From positions 2,994 through 66,993 of the forward strand of contig JABGQS010000013.1 of the NCBI GenBank assembly GCA_018648645.1: a stretch of DNA of 64,000 nt, written 5' to 3'. Position 1 is the stretch's first letter, and each line of letters opens with the position of its first letter. The stretch comes from Clostridia bacterium. Lineage in GTDB: Bacteria > Bacillota > Clostridia > Christensenellales > SZUA-584. Below are positions 1,928 to 56,809 of this stretch, piece after piece. Position numbers and translations under genes: made by a program. The notes beneath the pieces are model-generated. The model made no database searches. It saw only the letters and a program-made list of their open reading frames with translations, and was not told the DNA's origin.

Positions 1928-2017
1928 GTGTGCGAGAGTAAGTGAGTTGAATATGAGGTAATCGAGGCTTGACTCACCAGAGATGCGTGATGAAGAGCGC
2001 TTGCGAATATCGCGATA

Positions 2018-3499
2018 TTACAACTTGCCTTTTCGCACTTGCATCCAAAACGTAATCCCATCTGCTTGGTTTTGCACACCGTATCCGCTGCCATCAGCTT
2101 CTTGTATTGCTTTAACAATCGAAAGCCCAAGCCCATGTCCTCCAAGGTTGCGATCTCTCGATTGGTCAACCTTATAAAAGCTATCCCATAGCTTTGGCAA
2201 CTCCTCATCCGGAATGTGACTGCAAGTATTAAACACTTCAATTCGCACATTTTGGTCAGTTTGCGTCATGCGAATACTGATCGTTTTTTGATCATCAACA
2301 TACTTAATTGCGTTATTAACGTAATTGGACAAAACGATATCCACTTTCTGCTGATCTGCAATAACCATTGTTGGCTCTATGGGTTCAAAACTAAACTGAA
2401 TGGACTCTTGCTCAACTCTCTGCTGATACTTTTCTTTTAGACTCCTTATGAATGAAACAATTTCAAATTCAGCCGGATTGAGCACAACATCACCAAATCT
2501 AATTCTGTTGATATCCAGCAAATCGGTGATTAATCTATTCATTTTTTCTGTTTCATCTATAATCACATCGCAATAGTAATCAACCTTATCAAGGTCTTTG
2601 GCGACGTTCGACTTCAAACCGTCTGCATAACTTTGCATCAATGTCAAAGGCGTTTTTAGCTCGTGAGAAACATTGTTGAGCAATTGCTTTCTGTTTTCAT
2701 CTATCTTGATTTTTTCCTTGATTTGATTTTCAAGTTCATTGTTGCGAACATTCAGCGTTCCGATTGCATTCTTTAAGGCGTTTGAAAGAACGTTAATCTT
2801 TTGCGCCAACTGTCCCATTTCGTCTTTAGATTCAACAGGGCACGTTGTTTCAAAATTAAGGTTGCTCAATTCTGTTGCCACTTTGTTCATGGTTATGAGC
2901 GGTCGTGTGAATTTGTTTGAAAGTATGTAAGCGAAAAGCATTCCCGCAAACAACAAAATGATACCGACAATCGGTGCGAATCTGTTTGTGGATACAATAC
3001 TGATTTCCGGCGGGATCAACCTGACCCGAAGGATAACATGATCGCCGTTATTAAGATTACCGATGACGTTCAGCGTTCTGGCGTCAAGTATAGAATCGTT
3101 TGCCCAGAAAAAGCTGACATTGTCATTGATCACTTCCTCCTGTTCTACTTCAAAAAAGGAGGGCAAAGTCTCTGGGTATGTTGGCAGCACTCCAAGTGTT
3201 TCAAGTGCGTCGTTGCTTATTAAATACTCCTTGCTTTGATATTGAAGATCTCCTTGTGAGTCAAGTATAAATACATCAACATTAAAACCTTTATTATACT
3301 TTTCAAATTCCTTGTAGATGCCATCGTATTCTGAGCGCTCAAGTTCATTGATATACCGATATTGATTGAGCAGCTTGTTCTTCGCGACCGCCATATATAT
3401 CGGTTCAAACAAAAGAGAGTAAGCACTCATAAAAAGAACGATAAGCAAAACGATGAGTACACCTATTTGTAGAAACAGTTTAATTCTTATAGATTTCAT
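2018..3499 (-). CDS. Sensor histidine kinase (two TM segments, extracytoplasmic domain, HAMP, HisKA, HATPase_c)
   Basis: H-box NNVSHELKTPLT, N-box LSNYVNNAIKY, G-box GGHGLGLSIV. The ATG overlaps the upstream regulator stop (ATGA). Confidence 0.9.
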   Translation of the reverse strand: MKSIRIKLFLQIGVLIVLLIVLFMSAYSLLFEPIYMAVAKNKLLNQYRYINELERSEYDGIYKEFEKYNKGFNVDVFILDSQGDLQYQSKEYLISNDALETLGVLPTYPETLPSFFEVEQEEVINDNVSFFWANDSILDARTLNVIGNLNNGDHVILRVRLIPPEISIVSTNRFAPIVGIILLFAGMLFAYILSNKFTRPLITMNKVATELSNLNFETTCPVESKDEMGQLAQKINVLSNALKNAIGTLNVRNNELENQIKEKIKIDENRKQLLNNVSHELKTPLTLMQSYADGLKSNVAKDLDKVDYYCDVIIDETEKMNRLITDLLDINRIRFGDVVLNPAEFEIVSFIRSLKEKYQQRVEQESIQFSFEPIEPTMVIADQQKVDIVLSNYVNNAIKYVDDQKTISIRMTQTDQNVRIEVFNTCSHIPDEELPKLWDSFYKVDQSRDRNLGGHGLGLSIVKAIQEADGSGYGVQNQADGITFWMQVRKGKL

Positions 3500-4182
3500 T
3501 GCGTGTCCTCGCCGGCTTTAAATTTATACCCCGATTTTGGAACCGTTTTGATATATATGCTCGCCTTACTTAGTTTTGACCTAAGCCGGTTAATGGTTGT
3601 ATCAACGGTTCGGTCTGTACCATCATATTCGTAGCTCCAAATATTATCCAGCAGCCTCTCTCTGCTTAAAGCCACATTTTCGTGTTTGATCATATACATG
3701 AGCAGCTTAAGCTCAGTGCTGCTAAGCGTTATCGGAACATCGTCAACTGTCAAGCTTTGCTCTTTTACATAAATACGAAGGCTGCCGCGCTGTATGTAAT
3801 CCTTCTCGGGATTGCCGTACACTCGGGTATACAGCGCGTTCACTCTGGCAACCAAAATGCTTGCCTTAAACGGCTTTTTGATATACTCGTCCGCGCCTCG
3901 GCCAAACCCTGTCAGCTCGTCCGGTTCCTCGGTCTTTGCCGTAAGCATAATGATTGGCAGATCGCTGCGTTTTCTTATCTTGCTGCAGACCTCGAATCCG
4001 CTCATATACGGCATCATGACATCGAGGATAACTATTTTTATGGTTGGGTCGGACTCGAATATATCGAAAGCTTCTCGCCCGTCAGCTGCCTCGACAACTT
4101 CATATCCTTCCAGCGTCAGGAAATCAGAGATAACCGACCTGATTCTGCCTTCATCATCCGCAACCAATATCTTTTTGCACAT
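3496..4182 (-). CDS. OmpR-family response regulator
   Basis: Receiver domain KILVADDEG...ILDVMMP...LTAK, and a winged-helix C-terminus ...TVDTTINRLRSKL. I chose the internal ATG at 4182 because it follows GAGGTG; the listed ORF extends to 4242. Confidence 0.9.
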   Translation of the reverse strand: MCKKILVADDEGRIRSVISDFLTLEGYEVVEAADGREAFDIFESDPTIKIVILDVMMPYMSGFEVCSKIRKRSDLPIIMLTAKTEEPDELTGFGRGADEYIKKPFKASILVARVNALYTRVYGNPEKDYIQRGSLRIYVKEQSLTVDDVPITLSSTELKLLMYMIKHENVALSRERLLDNIWSYEYDGTDRTVDTTINRLRSKLSKASIYIKTVPKSGYKFKAGEDTQ

Positions 4183-4344
4183 CTCACACCTCTGTTTACA
4201 GACTAAGATATCCTTCTTTTTATCAATTATATCACAATACAAGTATTTTGTTACGGCTGTTATATTTTTGTGACAACTTTTTTATAAGCTATATCCATAA
4301 TCGATAAGATTAAATTTTGAGTCAGTAAATAAAGGGAGTAGAAA

Positions 4345-5730
4345 ATGAGAAATAAGAAAGAAAAGAAGAAGAAGTCAACTAGCCATATAGTATGGATAAT
4401 AGTAGCATGTGCACTATTTGTGTCAACTATTTGTATAGCTTTCTTCGCGTACATCGAGCCGAGATTACCCGGTGGGCCTCCACATTTTGATTTAGCCGAA
4501 GCTGAAAATAGACAACAATTATATGACAGACATGACGACTTTGAATTGTTGGATATTAATGATGATAATTATTTATCAGTAGATGAGTATTATGGCTTAC
4601 AAAAGATGTTCGATGATATGGATGTAAATGGTGATGGTTTGCTATCATGGGAAGAAGCCAAATATATGATGACATTTGTTGAAATTGAAGCAGGGACATT
4701 TACATTTGGAACAGACGAGGAATTTGCAGCATTCAAGGACCCGCCGGGAGATCAAGGTCCGGCCAGCGAGATTTATTTAGACACATATTTAATGGCTAAG
4801 ACAGAACTAACGATTGCACAATATGTGATGTATTTGAATTCTGCTTTAGAAGCCGGACAAATCGATGTTGTGTTGGGCGACATGATGATCGCAGATAAGA
4901 GATTTAACCGCGCCGTTCCTACATGGGAAATTCATGGTGCAGAGGGTACTACATATGAAGGAATGGTATTTACTAAACTTGTTCAAATGGGCGCGCTATC
5001 TCATAATGCGAATGAAGTGAGTGGAAAGCTGATTCCCGAGAGCCCGTATAATCAGTCGTGGATTAATTATCACGAACCAACAAACAGTTTTTATTCGGAC
5101 CCGGGCATGGAAGAAATGCCGGCTGCATATATGTATTGGTGGGGAGCAATGGCTTTTGCTGAGTACTACGAACTGTCAGTTCCGACAGAAGCAGAATGGG
5201 AAAAAGCTGCTAAAGGCGGTTTAGATTACGATTATGCGACAGTTGACGGTACTAATGCAGCCGACGTTTTGAACTACGGATGCTACAATGCACAGAATTC
5301 ACTATTCTATAGCGGTGTTGATACTCCGGAAGAATATGTTGGCTTCAGGCTGCCGGTTGGCTGCTATGAACCAAACCCATATGGCGTTTACGACATGTCG
5401 GGAAATGTTTGGGAATGGACGATGGATTGGTATAATACAGACTTTCATCAATACCTTATTGATGAAGGCATTACTAAAAATCCATTAAGCCTTGTTGGTG
5501 ATATAGGAATAGAGCCTACACAATACTTCATGGGCGACGAAGTTAAGGGAGGGCCATCGGTTCCGTTATCACATGATTCAATTGTAACAAGAGGCGGAAG
5601 TTATAACTATGGTGGTGGAGTGCAAAGAACCGAATGGAGAATGCCAACATACCAATTTATTGGAAACGACCATTTCGGAACAAGATTTGTTATACGGCCG
5701 GCTACAACAGAGTTTAACGAAAAAGAATAA
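4345..5730 (+). CDS. Membrane-anchored protein with two EF-hand Ca2+ loops and an FGE-sulfatase (SUMF1/formylglycine-generating-enzyme-like) domain
   Basis: AAGGGAG RBS. N-terminal Lys-rich stretch plus a TM helix. Canonical 12-residue loops DINDDNYLSVDE and DVNGDGLLSWEE. FGE-type motifs YGVYDMSGNVWEWTMDWY and RGGSYNY...HFGTRFV. Confidence 0.8.
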   Translation: MRNKKEKKKKSTSHIVWIIVACALFVSTICIAFFAYIEPRLPGGPPHFDLAEAENRQQLYDRHDDFELLDINDDNYLSVDEYYGLQKMFDDMDVNGDGLLSWEEAKYMMTFVEIEAGTFTFGTDEEFAAFKDPPGDQGPASEIYLDTYLMAKTELTIAQYVMYLNSALEAGQIDVVLGDMMIADKRFNRAVPTWEIHGAEGTTYEGMVFTKLVQMGALSHNANEVSGKLIPESPYNQSWINYHEPTNSFYSDPGMEEMPAAYMYWWGAMAFAEYYELSVPTEAEWEKAAKGGLDYDYATVDGTNAADVLNYGCYNAQNSLFYSGVDTPEEYVGFRLPVGCYEPNPYGVYDMSGNVWEWTMDWYNTDFHQYLIDEGITKNPLSLVGDIGIEPTQYFMGDEVKGGPSVPLSHDSIVTRGGSYNYGGGVQRTEWRMPTYQFIGNDHFGTRFVIRPATTEFNEKE

Positions 5731-5768
5731 AACCTGCCGCCGAGAAGACAAGCAACGGAGGAGTAATC

Positions 5769-6116
5769 ATGAAAAGAACAATTGTAACCATTGCAGCTAT
5801 CGTGTTGATAATCGTGCTGGCAATAACGCTGCCCAACATTATGCCGGGCATTGGTACATACACGCAGGATAAACCTGCCGGATTTTTTTCCGGGGTTTGG
5901 CACGGATGGATAGCGCCGGTATCGCTCGTATTTGGAATATTCAACAGCGACATTACGATTTATGAAACGATGAATACGGGTTGGTGGTACAGCTTCGGTT
6001 TCTATATAGCAATCATAAGCGGGTTTGGCGGCATTACACTGTTTAGACGCCCAAGAAAGCTTGTAGCGCAAGAAAGCGGCAGCCAAGAAGACAATAGCGA
6101 AACCCCTGAAAGCTAA
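5769..6116 (+). CDS. Small integral membrane protein (3 predicted TM helices), unknown function
   Basis: GGAGGAG RBS 6 nt upstream. Hydrophobic segments IVTIAAIVLIIVLAITL, WIAPVSLVFGIF and FGFYIAIISGFGGITLF. Acidic C-terminal tail. Confidence 0.6.
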   Translation: MKRTIVTIAAIVLIIVLAITLPNIMPGIGTYTQDKPAGFFSGVWHGWIAPVSLVFGIFNSDITIYETMNTGWWYSFGFYIAIISGFGGITLFRRPRKLVAQESGSQEDNSETPES

Positions 6117-6382
6117 ACGGTGTTTTTATCAATCGGCGCAACGTATCGCAGCTAAAAGGGAGCAGACCAAATAATGAGAAGCGCTCATTTGCTATGGTGG
6201 GTGGCATTGCCGAGTTGATTGTTTTCAACAGCCGCTTATCCACCACGGCGGGTGGGTCGCAGGACGCCTGCTGACAGAACAACTGTCTTTATAGGCAGAC
6301 GGAGCAAGAGTAAAAGATAGGTATCGGTATAATCGAAAGCGAATCGTTTTCGTTATATAAATTAAATTTGGAGGTATTAACT

Positions 6383-6928
6383 ATGTCTAAGGAAATGAAG
6401 GATCTTAGAAAACAAACGCTGCTGCTGGGGCTATGCTTTATCATCGTCGGAATTATACTAGTCAGCATACCGGAGATCACCCTCGCAACGATCGCCATCA
6501 TTGTGGGTATCGCGGCAGCAATCGTCGGTATTGTGAGAGTGGTTGGCTATTTTGTCAAGAAAAATGACGGAGAGGAAAGACCGTCGCTTGCCGGTGGACT
6601 TTTGCTGATTGCACTAGCAATTTTCATATTCACAAAACCCGGATTGATTACAACAATTCTGTATATCATACTTGGATTTGCGATTATTGCCAATGGTGTA
6701 ACGAAGCTGCAGGCCGGCATTACTATGAAGCGTCAAGCCAATAAATACTGGGTTGTGGTACTTATATCCGCCTTGGTTACAATTGCGCTTGGGTTCATTG
6801 TATTGTTTGGCGCATGGGGACCGGCCACACTGATTATTCTGATTGGCATCTTCATGATTATCGGCGGTGTGTTGGATGTAATCGCGGCACTGTTTTTGAA
6901 AAGTGCAGCAAAGAAGATCGAGGAATAA
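6383..6928 (+). CDS. HdeD/DUF308-like membrane protein (6 TM helices)
   Basis: GGAGG RBS, then ATG at 6383. Repeated Gly/Ile-rich helix pairs typical of DUF308. Confidence 0.65.
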   Translation: MSKEMKDLRKQTLLLGLCFIIVGIILVSIPEITLATIAIIVGIAAAIVGIVRVVGYFVKKNDGEERPSLAGGLLLIALAIFIFTKPGLITTILYIILGFAIIANGVTKLQAGITMKRQANKYWVVVLISALVTIALGFIVLFGAWGPATLIILIGIFMIIGGVLDVIAALFLKSAAKKIEE

Positions 6929-6995
6929 CCGACCTATTAAGCTGACGCGTTGCTTTGAAAGAGCGCAACGAAACAAAGAGTGGCATATGCTCACA

Positions 6996-7045
6996 AACTC
7001 CGCACGGTATCTGTTATGACGATGCTGTGCGGAGTTTTTATTATT
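6996..7045 (+). terminator. Rho-independent terminator
   Basis: AACTCCGCAC (6996-7005) pairs with GTGCGGAGTT (7027-7036), followed by TTTTATTATTT. Confidence 0.7.
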
Positions 7046-7106
7046 TGACTTTTATCATAACAAAAAATATAATAAATCATAATCAGTTAAACGAAGGAGT
7101 TTTACC

Positions 7107-7367
7107 ATGGAGCTAAAAAACATAAGCGAATCTATTGAAGTTAAAGTTTATCATATTACACCGGAGATGAAGGTACCTCTGCACGACCACAAAGATAAAG
7201 ACGAAATATTTTATTGCATCAAAGGCTCCGGTTTTGGAGTATTGTCAGACTCGCAAGTGGAGTTGACCGTAGGGAAAGCTTTTATCGTGCGTGCCGGCAA
7301 GATGCATTCGCTTAGAACTGATGACAATTTACATGTTACTTCTTTTATTGTTCCCGTAGTGGACTAA
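7107..7367 (+). CDS. Small cupin-domain protein
   Basis: GAAGGAG RBS. Cupin motif region PLHDHKDKDEIFYCIKGSG...GKMHSL. Confidence 0.7.
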   Translation: MELKNISESIEVKVYHITPEMKVPLHDHKDKDEIFYCIKGSGFGVLSDSQVELTVGKAFIVRAGKMHSLRTDDNLHVTSFIVPVVD

Positions 7368-7757
7368 AGATTGTAATAATCTAAATGAATACATTTTAGT
7401 GCTCATCAGAGTAAACTACAAATAATTGATAATATGATTAACGCATTATATTAAATGTGTTTCACGTGTTTGCTAATGTTCATTTGCGGATTTGTCACTC
7501 TATGTAATTAACAATGTTTCCAAATCCGTCAAAGTTCGCAAAAGAGTTTCTCCTTTGGAAAAACTTCAAAAATGCAAGCTAAATTGAATAACCCCCTTTT
7601 TTTGTAAACATAAAAAGTAACATATTTGATAACACGTTGTAATCCTTTTACTGTTGCATTAACCGCCAAACTATAATATACTCATTCTAATTGAAAAATT
7701 GTTAGTAACGAATAAAAAAGTGCACTCATTTTTTATCAAATATAAGGAGAAATAAAC

Positions 7758-8906
7758 ATGAACTATTTTTTAACTGAAGAACAGGAAATGATACAAGAAC
7801 TCGCCGCGAAAATCGCGGACGAGAAGATAACGCCGGTTGCCATTGAATATGATGAGAAGGGCACGTTCCCTCACGACATCATTAAAATATTAGCGGATAG
7901 CGACCTTTGCGGTGTGTATATCGAAGAGCAGTACGGCGGCCTTGGCGGCGGCATCATGGAAATGTCGCTGGTTGTAGAGCAGCTAAGCCGTGCGTGTGGC
8001 GGCATAGCGCTGGCGTTTGCCGGCACAGGTCTTGGCACATTCCCGATCATACTCTTTGGCAACGAAGAGCAGAAGAAAAAGTATCTCCCCGATATCGCAT
8101 CTGGCAAAAAGCTTGCAGCGTTTGGCTTGACCGAAGCTAACGCGGGCAGCGACGCAGCGGGTGTCGAAACCACAGCCGTTCTTGACGGAGACGAATACAT
8201 CCTTAACGGCACAAAAATGTGGATCACCAACGGTGGCGAGGCCGATATCTACTCGGTTATTGCGTGCACCGACAGAGAACTTGGACCAAGAGGCTTTTCC
8301 GCGTTTATCGTAGAGAAAGACACGCCCGGTTTCACGTTCGGCAAAAAAGAAGACAAAATGGGCATACGCGCTTCTGCCACGGTCGAGCTCGTGTTCGAGG
8401 ATTGCCGTATACCAAAAGAAAACCTGCTCGCGAACGAAGGCATGGGCTTTATCGTTGCTATGAAGACGCTCGACCGGACACGTCCGGGCGTTGCGGCGCA
8501 GGCACTGGGCATAGCGCAGGGCGCGCTTGACGCGGCAGCAAAGTACTCAAAGGAAAGAGAGCAGTTTGGCTCGACCATTTCCACCTTCCAGGCAGTTCAG
8601 CATATGTTGGCGGACATGGCAATACAAATCGAAGCGAGCAGAGCGCTCGTATACCAGACTTGCAGACACGTCGATTCGGGCGCAAAACGCATCTCCAAAG
8701 AGTCGGCGATGTGTAAGGTAATGGCGTCTGACACAGCAATGAAGGTCACAGTCGACGCAGTGCAGGTCATGGGCGGATACGGATACATGAAGGAGTTCCC
8801 TGTCGAGAAAATGATGCGTGACGCGAAGATTACGCAGATCTACGAAGGAACCAACCAGATACAGCGCAATATTATCGCACTTGAAGTGCTGAAAAAATAT
8901 CGCTAG
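7758..8906 (+). CDS. Acyl-CoA dehydrogenase (butyryl-CoA dehydrogenase / CarC-like)
   Basis: AAGGAG RBS. Motifs GLTEANAGSDA, MWITNGGEAD, and C-terminal QIYEGTNQIQR with the catalytic Glu region. Confidence 0.9.
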   Translation: MNYFLTEEQEMIQELAAKIADEKITPVAIEYDEKGTFPHDIIKILADSDLCGVYIEEQYGGLGGGIMEMSLVVEQLSRACGGIALAFAGTGLGTFPIILFGNEEQKKKYLPDIASGKKLAAFGLTEANAGSDAAGVETTAVLDGDEYILNGTKMWITNGGEADIYSVIACTDRELGPRGFSAFIVEKDTPGFTFGKKEDKMGIRASATVELVFEDCRIPKENLLANEGMGFIVAMKTLDRTRPGVAAQALGIAQGALDAAAKYSKEREQFGSTISTFQAVQHMLADMAIQIEASRALVYQTCRHVDSGAKRISKESAMCKVMASDTAMKVTVDAVQVMGGYGYMKEFPVEKMMRDAKITQIYEGTNQIQRNIIALEVLKKYR

Positions 8907-8927
8907 ACGCTGGCAAAATAACAAATA

Positions 8928-8959
8928 AACGACGGCTTCATAACATTGGAGCCGTCGTT
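8928..8959 (+). other. 10-bp perfect stem-loop between the acyl-CoA dehydrogenase and etfB, with no T-run
   Basis: AACGACGGCT (8928-8937) and AGCCGTCGTT (8950-8959) with a 12-nt loop. Followed by AAAGTTTG rather than a U-tract. Confidence 0.6.
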
Positions 8960-8992
8960 AAAGTTTGAAACATAAAACAAGGAGATAGTAAA

Positions 8993-9787
8993 TTGAACAT
9001 TGTAGTATGTGTAAAGCAAGTACCCGGAACTAACGAAGTGAAAATGAACGAGGAAACCAATACCATCATCCGTGAAGGCATGGAGGCCATTATCAATCCT
9101 TTTGACACTTATGCCGTTGAAGAAGGCGTGCGTTTAAAGGAGCAGACGGATGGTAAGGTAACGGCGATAAGCATGGGAATTCCCTCTGTTGCCGACTTGT
9201 TAAAAGAGACGATCGGGCTTGGAGTGGACGAAGCTGTGCTGCTGAGCGATCGGACGTTTGCGGGTGCAGATTCGCTCGCGACCAGCTACGCTCTGGCTAA
9301 GGGTATCGAGAAGATTGGCGGCGTTGACCTCATTATCTGCGGCAAACAAGCAACGGACGGGGACACGGCGCAAGTCGGACCGAGCCTTGCAGAGAAGCTT
9401 GGTATCCCGCACACCACTTACGTGAAAAAGATTGAGGAAATCAGTGAGGGGTATATCCGCTGTGAGCGCATGACCGACGACGGGTACGAAGTGATCGAAA
9501 TGACGCTTCCCGCTGTCATCACTGTGGTCAAAGAGATCAACGAACCGCGGCTGCCCTCCATGAAAGGCATGATGCGCGCCAAAAAAGCGGTTGTGCAAGT
9601 ATGGACAGCGGACGATGTCGGCGCTGATAAAGCGCTTTGCGGTCTTGATGGATCGCCGACCCAGGTCGTCAAAACGTTCGTACCGGTGCACAACGTCAAC
9701 AGCGAAATGATCGAGGGCGAACCAAACGAGCAGGCAAAACGGCTTGCGGACGTGCTCATGTCGATGCAGTTTGAAACCGGCAATTAG
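8993..9787 (+). CDS. etfB: Electron transfer flavoprotein, beta subunit
   Basis: TTG start 8 nt after AAGGAG. N-terminus MNIVVCVKQVPG and DLIICGKQATDGDTAQVG. Confidence 0.9.
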   Translation: MNIVVCVKQVPGTNEVKMNEETNTIIREGMEAIINPFDTYAVEEGVRLKEQTDGKVTAISMGIPSVADLLKETIGLGVDEAVLLSDRTFAGADSLATSYALAKGIEKIGGVDLIICGKQATDGDTAQVGPSLAEKLGIPHTTYVKKIEEISEGYIRCERMTDDGYEVIEMTLPAVITVVKEINEPRLPSMKGMMRAKKAVVQVWTADDVGADKALCGLDGSPTQVVKTFVPVHNVNSEMIEGEPNEQAKRLADVLMSMQFETGN

Positions 9788-9802
9788 TGGAGGATATAAT
9801 AA

Positions 9803-10996
9803 ATGGCTGAAATAAGAATTATTGAAGATAAATGTGTCGGGTGTAAGCTTTGCGTTCCGGCCTGCCCGTATGATGCAATCAAAGTCGAAAACAAGATGGC
9901 AGAGATACTGCCTAATTGTGTTCTGTGCGGCTTGTGTGTACCGGCGTGTAAATTTGACGCGATTGATTTAACAAAGGATGATGCGGATGAGAAGAGCGAT
10001 TTGGACTCGTACACAGGCGTGTGGGTATTCGGAGAGCAAAAGGGCGGCATACTTGCGGGCGTTGGGCTCGAGCTACTCGGCGAGGGCAGAAGGCTTGCTG
10101 ACGAGCTTGGCGAAGAACTATCTGCTGTGCTGATAGGAGAAAATGTAGGTGACGCTGCTAAGCAGATGGTTGCGGGCGGTGCTGATAACGTATACGTCGT
10201 AGACCACGAATCGCTTAAGCTTTTTAACGATGAGTCGTATGCGGACGTCTTCGTGCAGCTTATCCAAAAACACAAACCCGAGATAGTGCTGATGGGAGCC
10301 TCTACCTATGGGCGTTCGCTCGCACCGAGAATCAGCTCGCGCATCAACACGGGATTGACTGCGGACTGCACCAAGCTGGAGATTGATCCTGAAAAGAAGA
10401 TACTTATGCAAACTCGACCTGCTTTTGGCGGCAACCTGATGGCAACGATCATCTGCCCGAACCATCGGCCGCAGATGTCAACCGTGCGACCAAAAGTCAT
10501 GAAACCGCTCGAGCCTGATTTCTCCAGGACGGGCAACATCGTTGCAGAGGATGTAACAATCCCGCAAAACCTTAGCGTCAAAGTTGTTGATGTCGTTTCT
10601 GAATTAACAGAAACGGTTAACTTGACCGAAGCTGATATAATAGTGTCGGGAGGCAGAGGCCTTGGTGACCCGAAGAACTTTGAGCTTCTTCACGAGCTTG
10701 CTATGCTGCTCGGCGGTGCCGTTGGATCTTCGCGTGCGGCGGTTGACGCAGAATGGATTTCGTACAGCCATCAAGTAGGACAAACGGGCAAAACCGTTGG
10801 ACCCAAAGTGTACTTTGCCTGCGGTATATCCGGTGCAATACAGCACCTTGCAGGCATGTCGTCATCCGACACCATCATCGCAATCAACAAAAACCCGGAC
10901 GCGCCTATCTTTAAGATAGCAACGTTCGGTATTGTCGGCGATGTATTGCAAGTCGTGCCAGAGCTAATCAAAGAGTTCAAAGCGCGACTGGGTTAA
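9803..10996 (+). CDS. etfA: Electron transfer flavoprotein, alpha subunit, with an N-terminal 2x[4Fe-4S] ferredoxin domain (CarE-like)
   Basis: GGAGGA RBS. CVGCKLCVPACP and CVLCGLCVPACK lie in the first ~55 aa. The C-terminal FAD site is PKVYFACGISGAIQHLAGM. Confidence 0.9.
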   Translation: MAEIRIIEDKCVGCKLCVPACPYDAIKVENKMAEILPNCVLCGLCVPACKFDAIDLTKDDADEKSDLDSYTGVWVFGEQKGGILAGVGLELLGEGRRLADELGEELSAVLIGENVGDAAKQMVAGGADNVYVVDHESLKLFNDESYADVFVQLIQKHKPEIVLMGASTYGRSLAPRISSRINTGLTADCTKLEIDPEKKILMQTRPAFGGNLMATIICPNHRPQMSTVRPKVMKPLEPDFSRTGNIVAEDVTIPQNLSVKVVDVVSELTETVNLTEADIIVSGGRGLGDPKNFELLHELAMLLGGAVGSSRAAVDAEWISYSHQVGQTGKTVGPKVYFACGISGAIQHLAGMSSSDTIIAINKNPDAPIFKIATFGIVGDVLQVVPELIKEFKARLG

Positions 10997-11010
10997 ACTT
11001 GAGTTAAACG

Positions 11011-11039
11011 GGCAGCGGAGCAAATCTGCTGCCTTTTTT
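11011..11039 (+). terminator. Rho-independent terminator of the acd-etfBA operon
   Basis: GGCAGCGGAGCAAATCTGCTGCC followed by TTTTTTG. Confidence 0.8.
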
Positions 11040-11163
11040 GTTGTCATTTTTTCGGAGTTTTATCGTGGTTCTGGTGTGGTTTGCCGTAACTAGTTAAAAA
11101 ATGTGCCCCAAAGAGGGCGTTTCTTTCAAATGAACACCTCGCGACATCTTGTCTGGGGCTTTC

Positions 11164-12831
11164 TTATGCCCTCTCCAGCGCAAACAACGCTGCGCCAATC
11201 GCGCCGCAAAGCTGCGCGTGCTCGCAGATATAAAGATTCGTCTCCAGTTTATCCTCCAGCGCTTTCACAACGCCGCGATTTTTGGCAACACCGCCGGTCA
11301 TTATGTAACCTTCCTGCGGCGAAACGCGATTCACCAGCCCGCCCACTTTGGATGCGACAGAGCTGTTCAGCCCATGCACAATATCCTCCAGCGCTTTGTT
11401 TTGCGCAACAAGCGAAACCACCTCTGACTCGGCGAATACGGTGCACATGCTGGAAATGGTAATGTCCTCTTCCCAATCAAGCCCGATCTCGCTAATCTGC
11501 TCCAGCGTAAGCCCAAGCGCTCTTGCCATCATCTCCAAAAATCGCCCTGTTCCGGCAGCGCATTTGTCGTTCATCACAAAGTTTTGGACCGCGCCTGTCT
11601 CGTCAATTCGGATGACCTTGCTGTCCTGTCCACCAATGTCGATTACGGTACGCGCCTGCGCAGAGAGAAAATGCGCGCCTGCCGCATGACAGGTAATCTC
11701 TGTTACGCTGTCGTCGCCGTCGGCAATATAATCGCGGCCATAGCCGGTCTTAACGATGACGCGAATGTCACTTCGAGACAGCGCTGCTTTGCTTAGCGCG
11801 TCGCTCAGCGCTTGCTCAGCGCTGTTGTTTGCGCCGCCGCCTGTCGGAGCGATTACGGTAGAGATGATATTCTCCGCAGTATCCATAATGACCACGTCGG
11901 TGCTGGCAGAGCCGCTGTCAATCCCCGCGACATAGCTTGTATTTGCAGGTGTCGGCACTTTTGCGACAACTTGGTTTGTATCAGCAGCGCCGGATAGTGT
12001 TTCCGCAAAGGCTTGTATTCGAGTTCTCAGCTGACCTTCGCTTTGGCGTGTATAATCGGTTTCCAGCTTCAAAATAGGAAGCGTGGTATCGCGCTTAAAA
12101 CCCACATATTCGAATTCATAGTAATCGCAGAACTTAATTGAGTGGTAAATGATTCCCTTCAAGTTCTTATCATCGAACAACTTGCACCGAATCTCTGGCA
12201 TCCCCATTCGCCCGCAAGGGAACTGGCTCAGCAGCGCGACGGCATAGGCGGTAAACATGTCTTCTTCAGACATATCGGCCATGGCCTTCGTGTCACAAGT
12301 AAACTCGCGGTTGCTCACGCAAGTGAGATTCCTTACGGGCAAGGGCATGAGGGAGCTAATCGTCTCCTCCAGCTGTTTGCCGACACGCACTCCTAAAATC
12401 CCCACATACGGCTCGCTCTCACTCGGCGCTGTCGGGGCAAAAGCATTTAGGAACGCTTCCTTATCAAAGGGTATGCCGGAGCTAGCTGCGTATTCGTTTT
12501 TTAAGCGTAGCAGTCTTTTCCCAAGCTCCTGCGCGGCACTATCGCTGTTTTGGTGGGGCAGATCAAGCATAAACAAAAAATCGCAGGCCTTCGTATCATC
12601 GATGACGTCATAAGCTCTGTTCATGGTGTCGCAGCAGTTGATCAAAATGAGCTCCTGCGTATCCTCGCTAAGAGTAGACTCCATCAGCGCCTTGCCAAAA
12701 CCACACAAATTAATGTGAGAAGCGCGTTCGGAAACCTCGAAGTTATCAGCCACTTCATCCAGCAGCGAGCACTCCTGAGAAAACCCGCTGAACAGCTCAA
12801 CCGGGGTATATTTGCACACATATTTTATCAT
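11164..12831 (-). CDS. Fusion protein: 2-hydroxyacyl-CoA-dehydratase-family (HGD-D) subunit plus a C-terminal BcrAD/BadFG-type ATP-dependent activase
   Basis: The N-terminal ~290 aa (MIKYVCKYTPVELF...CDYY) are HgdB-like. The C-terminal ~260 aa have an acetate/sugar-kinase fold (YVAGIDSGSASTDVVIMD, VIDIGGQDSK, NDKCAAGTGRFLE, MTGGVAKN). Its ATG overlaps the upstream stop (TAATG). Confidence 0.85.
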   Translation of the reverse strand: MIKYVCKYTPVELFSGFSQECSLLDEVADNFEVSERASHINLCGFGKALMESTLSEDTQELILINCCDTMNRAYDVIDDTKACDFLFMLDLPHQNSDSAAQELGKRLLRLKNEYAASSGIPFDKEAFLNAFAPTAPSESEPYVGILGVRVGKQLEETISSLMPLPVRNLTCVSNREFTCDTKAMADMSEEDMFTAYAVALLSQFPCGRMGMPEIRCKLFDDKNLKGIIYHSIKFCDYYEFEYVGFKRDTTLPILKLETDYTRQSEGQLRTRIQAFAETLSGAADTNQVVAKVPTPANTSYVAGIDSGSASTDVVIMDTAENIISTVIAPTGGGANNSAEQALSDALSKAALSRSDIRVIVKTGYGRDYIADGDDSVTEITCHAAGAHFLSAQARTVIDIGGQDSKVIRIDETGAVQNFVMNDKCAAGTGRFLEMMARALGLTLEQISEIGLDWEEDITISSMCTVFAESEVVSLVAQNKALEDIVHGLNSSVASKVGGLVNRVSPQEGYIMTGGVAKNRGVVKALEDKLETNLYICEHAQLCGAIGAALFALERA

Positions 12832-14102
12832 TATCGTCTGTCCTCCAACATCTCAAGATATGCTCCAAAGCGGGTAGCCATTTGACCGTCGCTACAGTTG
12901 GCAGGGTCTCCACCGTCGCCGTCAAGTATCAGCGTCGGATAACCCGCTTCCTCAAAGTCGCGCTTAAACAGCGCGGATGCGCCGAGCGTTCCCTTGCAGC
13001 CCCAGTGTGCGAACACGACAATGCCATCAGCCTTTGTCTGCTCTGCGACCTGCTGCGCGCGCTGTGCACGCAATTTATAGTCGCCGTTGTAGCACGAATA
13101 CACCATGCGATGAGCCATCGCTTCATACGGGTTCGTGGGATCGATGTGCATCATGCTGTCATAAACAAGGTCGCAGGCAACAATCCTGGCTCTGTCGGTA
13201 AAGCTCAGATACTTGTTTGCCGAGGGTTGCAAGAAAGGAATCATGTGCAGCCAAACAAGACGAATGGCGTCATTGCCCTTCGCTTTCTTAATGTCAGAGA
13301 GCATGCGACGAGCGTACGTTTCCGCTTTTTTTGTGCCCATCATAATGTGACCTGTGAATACCGCGTAAAGCTCGCTTGCGATATCGCTTTTCATGGCGTG
13401 GTCTGCTTGATATTTTAAGTGTTCCAAGTAATATTCGCTGGTGCGGTGACTTCTCTGCATGGCTTCTTGCAGCATATTGTCGGTAATTTTTTTGCCGGAA
13501 ACATCGGAAATAAACGTGACCATTTCCCTTAGCTGCCCGGCAACGTGCTGCACGGCGTCTTCGCTGCGCTCGTATGGAACCTCGACAAAGAAGCTCGGGA
13601 TCTTGAAGCGATTGATTAGATACGGAAAGCTGGTCATGTTGGCATCGCAAGCAAGATTCGTGTAGATAAGCATTTTTGGATTGGGCACGACGCCGCTGCC
13701 CATTGCCCCATGAAATATCCTATGGAAGGAGCACAGCGTTTTTGACGCGCCGTCCTCTTCCGCAGCGTCCAGGAACACCTGCTCTGCGTGAACACCACCC
13801 AGAAACCCCGAAAGCGCTTCAACAGAAAAAGGCGTAATCCCGGCGACGTTCAAAGGCTCGCTCGGAATGAAAATACTTACCATCGCGGATTTTTCCGGCG
13901 AGGATAGCGCATCGACCATCGTGGCAGTAATTTGCCTCGAGGCATAGCGATGACTAGGCGAGACTTTGCTGCTTGGAAGGACAGAGCCGGCCTGCTGAAT
14001 GCGACACGCGTTAATCAGTATTTTGCGCGCTTTGACCGGATCTTCCAATACAGCTTTCTGTATAAGTTGTCCAAACTTTTCTACTTGCTCTTCTCTATCC
14101 AT
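12831..14102 (-). CDS. 2-hydroxyacyl-CoA-dehydratase-family (HGD-D) large subunit; the double-cubane-cluster-protein family is an alternative
   Basis: AGGAG RBS. 423 aa with the family-typical C-terminus ...GIVVFAHWGCKGTLGASALFK. Translationally coupled to the fusion gene. Confidence 0.75.
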   Translation of the reverse strand: MDREEQVEKFGQLIQKAVLEDPVKARKILINACRIQQAGSVLPSSKVSPSHRYASRQITATMVDALSSPEKSAMVSIFIPSEPLNVAGITPFSVEALSGFLGGVHAEQVFLDAAEEDGASKTLCSFHRIFHGAMGSGVVPNPKMLIYTNLACDANMTSFPYLINRFKIPSFFVEVPYERSEDAVQHVAGQLREMVTFISDVSGKKITDNMLQEAMQRSHRTSEYYLEHLKYQADHAMKSDIASELYAVFTGHIMMGTKKAETYARRMLSDIKKAKGNDAIRLVWLHMIPFLQPSANKYLSFTDRARIVACDLVYDSMMHIDPTNPYEAMAHRMVYSCYNGDYKLRAQRAQQVAEQTKADGIVVFAHWGCKGTLGASALFKRDFEEAGYPTLILDGDGGDPANCSDGQMATRFGAYLEMLEDRR

Positions 14103-45059: not shown

Positions 45060-45542
45060 ATGACGGGCTGCACAAAGAATAAAAATCAATTGCTATATGA
45101 CGAGCTGGCTCACTTCATTGCCGATTTGCCGGAGCGCAAGGGCGCGCTTATTTCGGTGCTGCACAAAGCGCAGAGCATATTCGGATATCTGCCGCGCGAG
45201 GTTCAGGAGTTTGTGGCAGGTCAGTTAAAAATACCTGTATCAAAAGTGTACGGCGTTGTCGAGTTTTACGCATTTTTTACTATGAAACCAAAAGGGCAGA
45301 TCCCGATTTCAATCTGCCTAGGGACGGCGTGTTTTATAAAAGGCGCAAAGGACGTGCTCAGCGAACTAAAGCAGATTTTGTCAATCGATGTCGGCGAGGT
45401 AACGCCGGACGGCAGGTTTTCAATCGACACGCTGCGGTGCGTAGGCACGTGCGCAATGGCGCCGGTAATTATGATTGACGAAAAAGTTTACGGCAATGTC
45501 GAGCGCAAAGACGTAAAAAAGATTATTCGCGAGCACCAATAG
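45060..45542 (+). CDS. NuoE/HydC/FdsG-like [2Fe-2S] thioredoxin-fold subunit
   Basis: AAGGGGAG RBS. Cys ligands CLGTAC ... CVGTCAMAP. Confidence 0.9.
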   Translation: MTGCTKNKNQLLYDELAHFIADLPERKGALISVLHKAQSIFGYLPREVQEFVAGQLKIPVSKVYGVVEFYAFFTMKPKGQIPISICLGTACFIKGAKDVLSELKQILSIDVGEVTPDGRFSIDTLRCVGTCAMAPVIMIDEKVYGNVERKDVKKIIREHQ

Positions 45543-45551
45543 GGAGCAGCT

Positions 45552-47048
45552 ATGGACGTTGTCACATCACTAAACAACATGACGTTTTACAAAAAGCAGC
45601 GGCGCATCGCGCTACGTAACTGCGGCGTTATCGACCCCGAAAATATCGACGAGTACATCGCATTCGACGGGTACAAAGCGCTCGCCACAGTGTTTGAGCA
45701 GCTGTCGCCCGACCAAGTGATTGATAACGTAAAACAATCTGGACTGCGAGGACGCGGAGGCGGCGGTTTCCCGACAGGGCGCAAGTGGGAGCTGGCAAGC
45801 GCGAAACAGTCGGACATCAAATACGTAATCTGCAACGCGGACGAAGGCGACCCCGGCGCTTTCATGGACAGGTCGATTCTCGAAGGCGACCCGCACAGCG
45901 TAATCGAAGCCATGACTATCTGCGGCTATGCCATCGGCGCAAACGAGGGCAAAATATACATCCGGGCGGAGTACCCGCTGGCGATTCACAGGCTGGAGAG
46001 GGCGATAGCCGACGCGAGGGAATACGGATTCATCGGCAAGAACTGCAACGGCAACGGCTTCGATTTCGACATCGAAATCAAGTACGGCGCAGGCTCGTTC
46101 GTGTGCGGCGAGGAAACGGCGCTCATCCGCTCGATGGAAGGCGAGAGGGGCGAGCCGACAATGCGACCTCCGTATCCTGCGGACGAAGGGTATTGGGGCA
46201 AGCCGACCAACGTTAACAACGTCGAAACGTTCGCAAACATCCCAAGCATAATACTAAACGGCGCGAAGTGGTTTGCCGACATTGGAACCGACAAATCAAA
46301 AGGCACAAAAGTGTTTTCACTCGCGGGCAAAGTCAATAACGTCGGGCTGATAGAAGTGCCGATGGGCATCACCCTGCGTGAAGTGATATACGACATCGGC
46401 GGCGGCATTGCGGGCGGCAAAGCATTCAAAGCCGTACAAACGGGCGGACCGTCAGGCGGGTGCCTCACGGCGGACGACCTTAACACCCCGATAGATTATG
46501 AAAACCTGCTGGCGGTGGGTTCAATGATGGGCAGCGGTGGCATGATCGTGATGGACGAAAGTGACTGCATGGTAGACTTTGCGAAATTCTACATGGAGTT
46601 TCTCGTGGAAGAATCGTGCGGAAAATGCACACCCTGCCGCGAGGGCACAAAGCGGCTGCACGAGCTGCTTGCAAAAATTACGCAGGGTGAAGCGGCTTTA
46701 AAAGACTTGCAAACCATACGGCAGTTGTGCGAAGTCGTCAAAGACTCGTCTCTTTGCGGTCTCGGGCAAACAGCACCCAATCCTGTTCTTTCCACGATGA
46801 CAAAGTTCAGCAAGGAGTATCTTGCGCACATCACAGACCATAAATGTCCCGCAGGCAAGTGCACGGCTTTGCTGCGTTTCAGCGTTGATGAGGGCAACTG
46901 CACTGGCTGCACGCTCTGTAAAAAAGCGTGCCCGACGCAAGCAATAACCGGCGAGGTCAAGCAAGTTCATTACATAGAGCAGAGCAAATGCATACGTTGC
47001 GATGCGTGCTATAAAGTCTGCAAATTTGACGCAATCATAAAGAAGTAG
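45552..47048 (+). CDS. NuoF/HydB/FdsB-like NAD(P)H- and FMN-binding subunit with a C-terminal 2x[4Fe-4S] ferredoxin domain
   Basis: AGGGAG RBS. Motifs [29 protein letters not shown]-terminal [12 protein letters not shown] and [12 protein letters not shown]. Confidence 0.9.
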
Positions 47049-47058
47049 GAGAGCCGAT

Positions 47059-49752: not shown

Positions 49753-49763
49753 AGGAGAGTCCC

Positions 49764-52926: not shown

Positions 52927-52961
52927 GAACGCAACATTCCAAGAATACATCGAGGTGTAAA

Positions 52962-53798: not shown

Positions 53799-53828
53799 TT
53801 TCAGCAAAATGATAGGAGTGTATCATTT

Positions 53829-54578: not shown

Positions 54579-54580
54579 TC

Positions 54581-55912: not shown

Positions 55913-55914
55913 CC

Positions 55915-56797: not shown

Positions 56798-56809
56798 GAG
56801 GATATATTC

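Follow-up and report, generated by a model that had tools for sequence, protein, structure and literature searches.

The genes acd, etfB and etfA form an operon within the window, as we call the whole 64,000-nucleotide (64-kb) stretch analysed from a Clostridia bacterium contig. Its products probably form a three-subunit flavoprotein complex, mechanistically of the Bcd-EtfAB/CarCDE type, that acts as a bifurcating-type enoyl-thioester reductase. Its physiological role may lie in fatty-acid synthesis, for which the chances appear roughly even, and a similarly balanced judgement holds for enzyme type and role taken together. The gene content, the cofactor-binding signatures and the clade membership of the catalytic subunit are direct observations. 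The fatty-acid role is proposed because Acd belongs to a clade, distinct from Bcd, whose other members lie in plsX-fabH-fabD-fabG-acpP-fabF operons or under FapR, which represses fatty-acid synthesis genes. Since fab neighbours and a FapR box are both missing at the window operon and its nearest relatives are free-standing, this link rests on orthology.

The gene order, the TTG start of etfB and the gene positions given in the initial annotation were confirmed by the ORF list (Table 1). These reading frames are real coding sequences, as identical proteins are found on independent public contigs together with hundreds of homologues at 70-95% identity. The TTG start of etfB has an AAGGAG motif 8 nt upstream, and the alignment with CarD begins at residue 1 (MRILVCAKQVP versus (M)NIVVCVKQVP); one public gene call, starting at an ATG further on, would lose this conserved strand. 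Upstream of acd, the TTGCAT/TATACT element is a candidate promoter by conservation. The TTGCA(t/c)-N17-TATACT layout recurs 5′ of acd in related Clostridia loci and is also found 5′ of fapR in three loci (L012, L017, L088). A generic sigma-70 scan missed the element because its −35 hexamer has only 3 of 6 consensus bases. The stem-loop between acd and etfB (MFE −24.7 kcal/mol, z = −5.45; 0/200 shuffles as stable) has counterparts in about 17 related loci, where the acd-etfB spacers also fold at z ≤ −5, and it might act in mRNA processing, stability or partial termination. The clean terminator first noticed at 11011 was recovered as a stem of 10 bp, six of them GC pairs, capped by a 5-nt loop (folding −19.2 kcal/mol, z = −3.0), followed by a T-run.

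Table 1. Features of the acd-etfB-etfA operon and its convergent neighbour (window positions).
Feature	Positions	Strand	Description
Promoter-like element	7654-7682	+	TTGCAT 7654-7659, 17-nt spacer, TATACT 7677-7682, in TATAATATACT; sequence reading
AAGGAG 5′ of acd	7744-7749	+	
acd	7758-8906	+	ATG start, 382 aa; ORF list
Intercistronic stem-loop acd/etfB	8922-8967	+	13-bp core stem, no T-run after
etfB	8993-9787	+	TTG start, 264 aa; ORF list
etfA	9803-10996	+	ATG start, 397 aa; ORF list
Ferredoxin-like domain of EtfA	9803-9997	+	about residues 1-65; cysteine motifs 9833-9865 and 9917-9949
Intrinsic terminator, operon end	11010-11040	+	stem 11010-11034, then TTTTTT; TTTTTTGTTGT
Dehydratase-family pair	11164-14102	-	2-hydroxyacyl-CoA-dehydratase family, HGD-D domains, fused BcrAD/BadFG activase

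On the basis of its three ACAD domains (Pfam), Acd is a flavoprotein of the acyl-CoA dehydrogenase family and the catalytic (δ-FAD) subunit. Glu363, in an IYEGT motif of which the YEGT glutamate is conserved, is the candidate catalytic residue. The best matches among solved structures are the Bcd proteins of C. difficile (439 bits, 55% identity) and A. fermentans (418 bits), whereas CarC comes at rank 21 with 320 bits. For this subunit, the CarCDE-like label of the initial annotation had to be given up. In a neighbour-joining tree (200 bootstraps), the window Acd belongs to a core clade (B) recovered in 200/200 replicates, which stands apart from the canonical Bcd clade (187/200) and shows a Clostridia subclade, also at 200/200.

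EtfB, with its ETF domain (Pfam), is by sequence the small Etf subunit, with the β-FAD and the NADH site. Its matches to solved structures are CarD (233 bits), LctB (224 bits) and T. maritima EtfB (220 bits). An alignment check for the bifurcating signature had been suggested at the outset. All three conserved segments defined for bifurcating EtfBs (PMC9232219) are present, R87TFAG91 (RxFxG), D122GDTAQVGP130 and S221PT223, with no AMP-type signature, which favours bifurcation. However, motif presence is no proof of bifurcation, because the C. propionicum Etf is a close relative of the bifurcating Etfs and yet is non-bifurcating (PMC9232219).

EtfA contains Fer4/Fer4_7, ETF and ETF_alpha domains (Pfam) and is thereby assigned as the large Etf subunit, its Etf-α core with the α-FAD. 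It had been described as beginning with two complete CxxCxxCxxxCP motifs. All eight cysteines are indeed found, in C11-x2-C14-x2-C17-x3-C21-P and C39-x2-C42-x2-C45-x3-C49-K, although CK and not CP closes the second motif. The best solved-structure match is CarE (447 bits, 52.6% identity over residues 4-392, eight cysteines aligned), and the conserved arginine R205 aligns with CarE R203 and LctC R205. As an architecture, ACAD, EtfB and EtfA with a 2x[4Fe-4S]-type domain are thus CarCDE-like, as proposed, and CarE and CarD are the best structural matches of the Etf subunits. These subunits are only marginally nearer to CarDE than to the remaining bifurcating Etfs: identity of the EtfA core is 54.5% with CarE versus 49.5% with C. 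difficile EtfA, and that of EtfB is 46.5% with CarD versus 45.0% with LctB.

The view that the ferredoxin domain distinguishes CarE could not be maintained. Ferredoxin-fused EtfAs number thousands of proteins, with a relative encoded in more than 570 species genomes, and both cysteine motifs occur in 120/120 homologues listed and in 78/78 EtfAs of related loci. Such EtfAs have other partners too, namely canonical Bcd in loci preceded by Rex, and GlcD-type dehydrogenases; the combination with canonical Bcd was seen in Geosporobacter, Thermotalea and Anaeromonas. In Bcd-EtfAB, the EtfAs of known structure lack this domain (PMC9232219).

From these sequences, we infer bifurcation itself, the reaction direction and the substrate as follows. 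NADH would reduce the β-FAD, held between EtfB and EtfA, where the electron pair would be split. One electron would travel through the mobile α-FAD domain of EtfA and arrive at the Acd FAD, where a trans-2-enoyl thioester would be reduced. The other electron, at low potential, would reach ferredoxin by way of the two [4Fe-4S] clusters in the N-terminal domain of EtfA. In the most economical reading, enoyl-ACP would be the substrate, or else an equivalent enoyl thioester from the fatty-acid pathway, and reduced ferredoxin would conserve some of the ample free energy that the enoyl-reduction step releases. It counts against a role with ACP that the sequence of Acd resembles that of acyl-CoA enzymes, the best matches in NCBIfam and the PDB being CoA-dependent.

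The genomic context of the relatives points to the fatty-acid pathway. Where at least 3 kb of sequence flanks the locus on either side, same-strand fab genes lie within 6 kb in 18 of the 41 loci at 59-75% Acd identity and in 1 of 12 below 59%, this last locus being basal to the clade. Of these 18 fab-embedded loci, some are on genome records whose titles name at least six phyla and the others on unclassified metagenome contigs. The acd/etf genes are placed after fabF (L035, L036, L044, L078), after fabF-rnc (L027, L032, L037, L097) or between fabH and fabD (L038, L112, L142), and acd is found without etf in the arrangement plsX-acd-fabD-fabG-acpP-fabF (L123, L126-L128, L130). In these assignments, FabF, FabD, FabG, FabH and PlsX scored above their NCBIfam cut-offs and acpP was recognised by its translation. 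No crotonase, hbd or thiolase was found among the annotated recurrent neighbour clusters of the relatives' loci. The canonical Bcd clade is preceded instead by the redox regulator Rex.

Closer relatives carry putative FapR operators. A weight matrix built from three fapR-promoter operators scored 17.7-24.8 bits before acd in 11 Clostridia loci (L008, L011-L019, L054). These are stand-alone operons at 80-85% Acd identity to the window, the fab-embedded group being at 60-75% (59-75% in the locus count). The site always lies 8-14 nt past the TTGCA-N17-TATACT promoter, and 0/300 shuffles reach its score. Only two other sites at that score occur in the 1.27 Mb scanned, and fapR promoters outside the training set score 22.9 bits. 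In B. subtilis, the FapR regulon consists of fatty-acid and phospholipid genes, with the operator in or just past the promoter (PMC5052256). Two of the FapR-box genomes have the fab operon fapR-plsX-fabH-fabD-fabG-acpP-fabF-rnc, and no FabI/FabK gene is present within that operon. At the window operon, no FapR-like site exceeds 10 bits, and no fab gene lies within the 64 kb; the nearest relatives (L003, L005, L006, L083, L085) are also free-standing operons, with variable neighbours.

Relatives of the window genes occupy the usual places of the FabI, FabK, FabL and FabV enoyl-ACP reductases, either a fab operon or a separate FapR-controlled unit. These reductases are SDR or TIM-barrel NAD(P)H enzymes with no kinship of sequence or fold to Acd-Etf, whereas the proposed enzyme would require an Etf and yield reduced ferredoxin. 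In other bacteria, fabK is found inside fab operons, a position comparable to that of acd in the relatives, and B. subtilis fabI is a separate FapR-controlled gene. If the proposal is true, it hints at an unrecognised way to run the last reduction step of lipid synthesis. A 2023 review counts only the four families FabI, FabK, FabL and FabV (PMC10054515). The complex need not be the sole reductase, since some relatives have a further gene of such a kind, FabI-like in L071 and FabK-like in L038, where the score of 170 bits falls short of the 453 cut-off.

Several other readings may be envisaged. An unlikely, but not negligible, one is an ordinary bifurcating butyryl-CoA dehydrogenase/Etf, reducing crotonyl-CoA in the fermentation to butyrate or another short-chain acid; thiolase, hbd and crotonase would then be encoded elsewhere in the genome, and the ferredoxin domain would be a common accessory. 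The catalytic subunit of Bcd-EtfAB (C. difficile, A. fermentans; PDB 5OL2, 4KPU, 4L1F) is the closest characterised one, and the three-FAD logic and the EtfB and EtfA signatures are common to both systems. The free-standing window operon and the ferredoxin-fused EtfAs found with canonical Bcd agree with this reading. Homologues are named butyryl-CoA dehydrogenase by some public sources. The reading is opposed by the tree, in which full bootstrap support separates Acd from the canonical Bcd clade, by the fab genes as annotated recurrent neighbours in related loci, and by sister lineages having FapR operators and not Rex. In addition, the early remark that no crotonase, hbd or thiolase gene lies nearby was borne out across the full 64 kb of the window, which holds no butyrate-pathway genes; a Rex context is likewise absent.

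It is improbable that the complex works in the oxidative direction (confurcation), NAD+ being reduced by an acyl substrate together with reduced ferredoxin while the acyl thioester is dehydrogenated, either in anaerobic β-oxidation or in a FabX-like formation of trans-2/cis-3 enoyl-ACP for unsaturated fatty acids. Under standard conditions, the reaction strongly favours reduction, analogous reactions releasing about 36 kJ/mol or more (PMC5861303), and isomerase, desaturase and β-oxidation genes do not recur beside the clade in the related loci. Precedents nevertheless exist, as Ldh-EtfAB is physiologically confurcating and requires its ferredoxin domain (PMC9232219), and as FabX backtracking dehydrogenates acyl-ACP within fatty-acid synthesis (PMC8626469); the fab-operon and FapR context is equally compatible with a lipid-modifying dehydrogenase.

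Rather improbable too is a non-bifurcating NADH-dependent enoyl-CoA reductase resembling AcrABC of Anaerotignum (Clostridium) propionicum, also made of an ACAD and an Etf, in which the Etf would merely relay NADH electrons to the dehydrogenase. The top NCBIfam models are AcrC for Acd (473 bits) and AcrA for EtfA (383 bits), and AcrB (225 bits) comes second for EtfB behind the generic EtfB model (298 bits), but all three scores are far under the curated cut-offs (640 for AcrC, 475 and 600 for the others). The AcrA model (360 positions) aligns from residue 199 of the window EtfA onwards, leaving the ferredoxin region uncovered. Its match is split in two stretches, which weakly suggests that the window EtfA lacks an Acr-specific insertion. 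Bifurcating-type sequence features can persist in a non-bifurcating Etf (PMC9232219), yet a 2x[4Fe-4S] domain kept in every relative would have no role in a simple NADH-to-enoyl route.

The convergent dehydratase-family pair, overlooked in the initial annotation, lies 168 bp past the etfA stop codon. That it supplies a 2-enoyl-CoA as substrate, as in clostridia that ferment amino acids, whose had/fld/lcd clusters encode a 2-hydroxyacyl-CoA dehydratase working in series with an Acd-Etf, appears very improbable. The activase would require low-potential electrons such as those of the complex, but the pairing recurs in 0/80 genome loci (tblastn), the closest relative at 90% Acd identity included. 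The two units are convergent and not co-transcribed, CoA-transferase and 2-hydroxyacid dehydrogenase genes are absent nearby, and characterised dehydratases are matched only weakly (53 bits for HadB, whose cut-off is 750).

Finally, a true CarCDE orthologue, a caffeyl-CoA/phenylacrylyl-CoA reductase for phenylacrylate respiration as the initial title implied, is largely refuted at the sequence level: the window shares with A. woodii CarCDE (PDB 6FAH) the gene order, the two N-terminal CxxCxxCxxxC motifs, the bifurcating-type EtfB segments and the EtfA arginine, but Acd is not CarC-like (CarC lying 120 bits under Bcd), CarE and CarD identities are only 53% and 47%, carA/carB-type, CoA-transferase or CoA-ligase genes do not accompany the operon, relatives have links to fatty-acid synthesis and not to phenylacrylate respiration, and the family is far too widespread and conserved across phyla for a niche substrate.

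Compared with confurcating Ldh-EtfAB (LctBCD of A. woodii, PDB 7QH2), the window operon has in common a ferredoxin-fused EtfA and a bifurcating-type EtfB, with identically numbered RxFxG and DGDTAQVGP segments. LctBCD differs by its GlcD-type partner and one-cluster ferredoxin domain, whereas the window has an ACAD partner and both cluster motifs complete. Ldh-type loci, a different arrangement, also occur among the relatives (L021, L042, L070).

The acd, etfB and etfA genes, which encode an acyl-CoA dehydrogenase family subunit (Acd) and the two Etf subunits, lie in a single operon. The initial annotation had read the gene order as that of CarCDE, the caffeyl-CoA reductase of Acetobacterium woodii, and the open reading frames, the spacers (86 nt between acd and etfB, 15 nt between etfB and etfA) and the one terminator agree with this. 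The promoter before acd retains a TTGCAT-N17-TATACT layout. The TTG start of etfB, also proposed earlier, is credible: an AAGGAG sequence is found 8 nt upstream, and the alignment with CarD starts at residue 1 and spans the conserved first strand. Proteins identical to those of the trio are encoded elsewhere too, on independent public contigs, among them the MAG GCA_018693675.1. A spacer hairpin with z <= -5 is also observed between acd and etfB in some 17 related loci of different phyla, mostly without a T-run (L003, L005, L013, L022-L024, L049, L051, L056, L057, L085, L088-L092; L-numbers designate loci from other genomes or metagenome contigs). This stem-loop may determine how much Acd is made relative to Etf, or stabilize the upstream transcript.

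Positions and assignments of the features discussed in the text
Feature	Positions	Strand	Description
FGE-sulfatase protein	4345-5730		461 aa; EF-hand calcium-binding motif and FGE-sulfatase (formylglycine-generating enzyme-like) domain
TTAG-containing element	7700-7730		just after the -10 of the acd promoter; TTAGTA half-site at 7706
acd	7758-8906	+	382 aa; three ACAD domains (Pfam)
Stem-loop, acd-etfB spacer	8922-8967	+	-24.7 kcal/mol, z = -5.45
etfB	8993-9787	+	TTG start, 264 aa; ETF (Pfam)
etfA	9803-10996	+	397 aa; Fer4/Fer4_7, ETF and ETF_alpha (Pfam)
Terminator	11010-11040	+	10-bp GC-rich stem, then T-run; end of the operon
Dehydratase-family pair	14102-11164	-	423-aa HGD-D protein and 555-aa HGD-D protein fused to BcrAD/BadFG activase (Pfam, NCBIfam)
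Redox cluster with FdhD	45060-50534		NuoE-like [2Fe-2S] protein, NuoF-like FMN/[4Fe-4S] protein, 897-aa NuoG-type/molybdopterin formate-dehydrogenase fusion, FdhD
Soluble [NiFe]-hydrogenase, sulfhydrogenase type	51892-62043		four genes (Fer4_22 protein, FAD/NAD-binding protein, small and large subunits), then hypB, hypF, hypD, hypE

Structural study of the Ldh-EtfAB complex identified three conserved EtfB segments, RxFxG at the NAD site, DGDTAQVGP at the β-FAD and SPT as anchor of the EtfB arm, whose mutation abolishes activity (PMC9232219). An arginine of EtfA contacts the N5 atom of the bifurcating FAD (PMC9232219; R203 in CarE, PMC5861303). In the window, EtfB has the three segments, as R87TFAG91, D122GDTAQVGP130 and S221PT223, and all three are present in 56 of the 70 related EtfBs. 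R205 of EtfA, within TRPAFGGN, aligns with CarE R203 and LctC R205, the arginine that hydrogen-bonds N5 of the β-FAD. An AMP-type EtfB had been named as the outcome that would speak against bifurcation; by the EtfB segments and EtfA R205, the comparison favours a bifurcating-type Etf. Such signatures are necessary but not sufficient, hence not a proof, because the C. propionicum Etf is a close kin of the bifurcating Etfs and yet is non-bifurcating (PMC9232219). At the level of sequence, there is good support for the mechanistic type, a bifurcating Acd-Etf complex acting on an enoyl thioester. In this scheme, electrons from NADH would be taken up by the β-FAD, from which one electron would pass via the α-FAD to the Acd flavin for reduction of the enoyl thioester, the other electron travelling through two [4Fe-4S] clusters to ferredoxin.

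These two clusters are predicted from the ferredoxin domain of EtfA, in which C11/14/17/21 and C39/42/45/49 all match CarE cysteines in the alignment. Two complete CxxCxxCxxxCP motifs had been described at first sight. The eight cysteines are indeed present, but the motifs read C11xxC14xxC17xxxC21P and C39xxC42xxC45xxxC49K, so that the second ends with CK instead of CP. The fusion had moreover been considered a hallmark of CarE, a view that does not hold since the fused EtfA is widespread and also occurs beside canonical Bcd and GlcD-type dehydrogenases. Among 5.8 billion proteins, at least 8000 candidate relatives of EtfA were found, and the 120 matches listed are all 395-438 aa long with Fer4. 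With one genome scanned per species, the relatives found number more than 570 and come from Clostridia, Omnitrophota, Planctomycetota, Nitrospirota and other groups. Both cysteine motifs are kept in 78 of 78 related EtfAs and in 120 of the 120 database proteins listed. Canonical Bcd accompanies EtfA of the two-cluster type behind the redox regulator Rex, in the order rex-bcd-etfB-etfA, in Clostridiaceae 35-E11, Anaeromonas, Geosporobacter and Thermotalea (L048, L058, L059, L073). In Clostridium ganghwense, C. homopropionicum and a Clostridia MAG (L021, L042, L070), a GlcD-like FAD dehydrogenase (524 aa) is encoded directly upstream of etfB and the fused etfA; this arrangement is of the Ldh-EtfAB type, yet both cluster motifs are present in its EtfA, against a single one in A. 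woodii LctC. As a machine, the window complex is a familiar one, one more bifurcating-type Acd-Etf complex with a very common ferredoxin-fused EtfA.

Comparison with characterized complexes gives different answers for the Etf and Acd subunits. In the PDB, the best solved-structure matches of the Etf subunits are CarE (447 bits) and CarD (233 bits). The lead of CarDE over other bifurcating Etfs is small: the EtfA core shares 54.5% identity with CarE and 49.5% with C. difficile EtfA, and EtfB shares 46.5% with CarD and 45.0% with LctB. For Acd, the best phmmer matches in the PDB are the Bcds of C. difficile (439 bits, 55% identity) and A. fermentans (418 bits), whereas CarC is found at rank 21 with 320 bits. 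A fab-linked relative behaves alike, and a CarC identity for Acd was rejected. The CarCDE reading is correct in part: it stands for the type of Etf and for the presence of a ferredoxin wire, but the wire is not specific to CarE and, by PDB scores, the dehydrogenase is not CarC-like. The car operon includes genes for a CoA-transferase (carA) and a CoA-ligase (carB); no gene of either kind was found among the scanned neighbours of the window operon. As in Bcd, Acd has an ACAD fold, and E363 in its IYEGT sequence, a candidate catalytic glutamate, aligns with the motif of C. difficile Bcd. The top NCBIfam models for Acd and EtfA are those of acryloyl-CoA reductase, AcrB being second for EtfB. All three scores lie below the AcrABC equivalog cut-offs (AcrC 473 against 640, AcrB 225 against 475, AcrA 383 against 600). 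Finally, the window complex differs from Ldh-EtfAB (LctBCD) by its ACAD partner, in place of a GlcD-type one, and by having both cluster motifs complete instead of one; the GlcD-linked relatives represent a distinct arrangement.

The position of Acd was further examined in a neighbour-joining tree of 64 Acd sequences (200 bootstraps), with C. difficile Bcd as the sole characterized reference and CarC not included. A core clade, recovered in 200 of 200 bootstraps, groups the window with the loci carrying FapR boxes (see below) and all the copies embedded in fatty-acid synthesis (fab) operons. Within it, a Clostridia subclade uniting the window and the FapR-box loci is found equally often (200/200). 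The canonical Bcd clade (187/200) contains C. difficile Bcd together with L048, L058, L059, L073 and L080, among them the Rex-linked copies. The window Acd is outside this clade in the tree, in the separate 200/200 clade, where it clusters with the Christensenellales-type MAGs L003, L005 and L006, nested among the FapR-box lineages. Conservation is stronger in Acd than in the Etf subunits, the identity of Acd being 80-87% among Clostridia and 60-75% for other phyla, and the acd-etfB-etfA order is kept in most related loci. The window complex belongs to a large, uncharacterized clade of Acd-Etf complexes, which is found widely, shows strong conservation and comes mostly from uncultured organisms.

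When neighbouring ORFs were clustered without bias, the genes that recur beside the trio in its relatives proved to be those of fatty-acid synthesis. NCBIfam identified FabF (score 650, cut-off 494), FabD (322, cut-off 261), FabG (340, cut-off 298), FabH (432, cut-off 292) and PlsX (367, cut-off 243); RNase III and FapR, the repressor of fatty-acid synthesis genes, were also recognized, and acpP was found via translation. The trio occupies several positions in these operons: after fabF (L035, L036, L044, L078), after fabF-rnc (L027, L032, L037), between fabH and fabD (L038) or directly before fabD (L075, L082). The embedding was found again in an independent metagenome sample. Considering the loci flanked by 3 kb or more on both sides, same-strand fab genes occur within 6 kb in 18 of 41 loci with 59-75% Acd identity and in one of 12 below 59%. 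The fab-embedded relatives belong to Omnitrophota, Planctomycetota, Nitrospirota, Margulisiibacteriota and others. Among the clusters of recurrent neighbours that were annotated in the related loci, none corresponds to crotonase, hbd, thiolase or Rex. Rex precedes only the genes of the canonical Bcd clade, directly, in contrast to the FapR/fab context of the window's clade.

The metagenome sample further contributed contigs that have acd alone in the fab operon, with no etf genes beside it, for example as plsX-acd-fabD-fabG-acpP-fabF (L123, L126-L128, L130) or as fabF-(rnc)-acd (L100, L120, L121, L131). In the plsX-acd-fabD type, fabH was not detected between plsX and fabD. A further candidate arrangement, accB-fabZ-accC-acd in L109, L113 and L155, was discarded on the Pfam result for L109, where the genes proved unrelated.

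In Clostridia the trio is free-standing, and a FapR operator was for this reason looked for. This operator is located within or just after the promoters that it controls, and the promoter of fapR itself has a conserved one (PMC5052256). With a weight matrix built from three fapR-promoter sites (L012, L017, L088), sites of 17.7-24.8 bits are predicted upstream of acd in 11 Clostridia loci of the window's subclade (L008, L011-L019, L054), always 8-14 nt past a TTGCA-N17-TATACT promoter. None of 300 shuffles per region reaches such scores, only two other sites as high occur in the 1.27 Mb of loci, and fapR promoters not used in training (L094, L095) score 22.9. In two of the FapR-box genomes, the fab operon fapR-plsX-fabH-fabD-fabG-acpP-fabF-rnc is without a FabI or FabK gene, and the trio lies 2.5 kb from it in the opposite direction. 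The presence of a divergent fapR-plsX-fabH-fabD operon 2.5-4 kb from acd (L012, L017, L088-L094) was not retained as an argument of its own. Taken alone it is weak evidence, because rimO and pgsA intervene and the rimO-pgsA...recA neighbourhood is itself conserved.

In the window itself, no FapR-like site scores above 10 bits with the weight matrix across the whole 64 kb. The promoter region has a TTAGTA half-site only, and no FapR-type palindrome is shared by its closest relatives. TTAG-containing elements just after the -10 are observed in the window (TGTTAGTAACGAAT) and in two of its closest relatives, L083 (GGTTAGCGAATCTAAC) and L005 (TTAGCAATGCTAA). They are unlike the FapR operator found in the sister lineages, which is 17-19 bp long, and may correspond to a diverged or different operator. 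Pfam analysis of about 58 ORFs showed no fab gene in the 64 kb, and no crotonase, hbd or thiolase either. Two independent lines, the embedding in operons at several positions across phyla and the control by FapR in Clostridia, point to fatty-acid synthesis. A role of the window complex in lipid synthesis is likely and would be new to the accessible literature; since fab neighbours and FapR-like sites above 10 bits are absent from the 64 kb, the link rests for the window on orthology.

As to the reaction, the enoyl-ACP step is the sole carbon-carbon double-bond reduction in fatty-acid synthesis. FabI, FabK, FabL and FabV are simple NAD(P)H enzymes, which waste about 300 mV of driving force. The enoyl reduction of fatty-acid synthesis has been assigned to these four families (PMC10054515). 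It is tempting to imagine, and we propose it tentatively, that the clade might represent a fifth, unrecognized kind of enoyl-ACP reductase, an ACAD flavoprotein fed by a bifurcating Etf with a two-cluster wire, under FapR control in Clostridia and within fab operons elsewhere. Per elongation cycle, 2 NADH would be used and 2 reduced ferredoxins returned, allowing strict anaerobes to conserve energy during lipid synthesis. Against this proposal, Acd resembles by its sequence an enzyme of CoA esters. ACAD-family enzymes acting on carrier-protein-bound substrates do exist (MbtN, PigA/RedW), but the NCBIfam models of the MbtN and PigA/RedW types match Acd more weakly than the CoA-type models. As a further caveat, genes resembling known reductases were found, though within only two of the loci: a FabI-like gene beside the trio in L071 and a FabK-like gene in L038. 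It may also be envisaged that the complex could run in the reverse direction.

The FabK-like protein of L038 (11223-12221, 170 bits against a cut-off of 453) is encoded between acpP and fabF, in the Margulisiibacteriota fab operon that contains the trio. It has a cysteine cluster in its C-terminal part (CPYQCLKSCNRVYC) and, instead of being a standard FabK, could be an iron-sulfur relative of the FabX kind.

In the full-text literature, no paper was found that connects Acd-Etf complexes with the reduction of enoyl-ACP or with fab operons; subscription journals were outside this scope, and a prior description is possible. In the same literature, a single paper contains both 'enoyl-ACP reductase' and 'electron bifurcation', and its topic is unrelated. 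If the enoyl-ACP role were true, electron bifurcation would extend from catabolism into core biosynthesis, and estimates of the energy available to anaerobes would have to be revised. It might also explain anaerobe genomes without a recognizable enoyl-ACP reductase, should such genomes exist, and the clade would be a reductase possibly out of reach of the present inhibitors of FabI and FabK.

Turning to the surroundings of the operon, the dehydratase-family pair is convergent with it, 168 bp past the etfA stop codon. In amino-acid fermenters, 2-hydroxyacyl-CoA dehydratases feed Acd-Etf complexes, which makes a coupling attractive at first. The pair gives weak matches, about 50 bits, to characterized 2-hydroxyacyl-CoA dehydratases and benzoyl-CoA reductases. 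A conserved coupling between operon and pair was rejected, as tblastn with both proteins gave no match beside the Acd-Etf genes in any of 80 related genome loci; the closest relative carries unrelated small ORFs at this position. From these comparisons, the proximity of the pair to the trio is treated as coincidental. Plasmalogen synthase (PlsA/PlsR), judged by description only, was also set aside for the pair, the published enzyme having two activator and two reductase domains against one activator here. The G+C content is 0.51-0.525 over the etf operon and the dehydratase genes (8001-14000), compared with 0.41 in the upstream 6 kb (2001-8000), and ranges from 0.41 to 0.54 across the whole window.

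Upstream, the neighbours are a cupin, a DUF308 protein, the FGE-sulfatase protein and a two-component system, divergent and beside the latter protein. Farther downstream, the cluster with FdhD has a layout that resembles those of NAD- and ferredoxin-linked formate dehydrogenases, possibly bifurcating. Taken with the hydrogenase cluster, it reveals an organism with many redox modules linked to ferredoxin and NAD.
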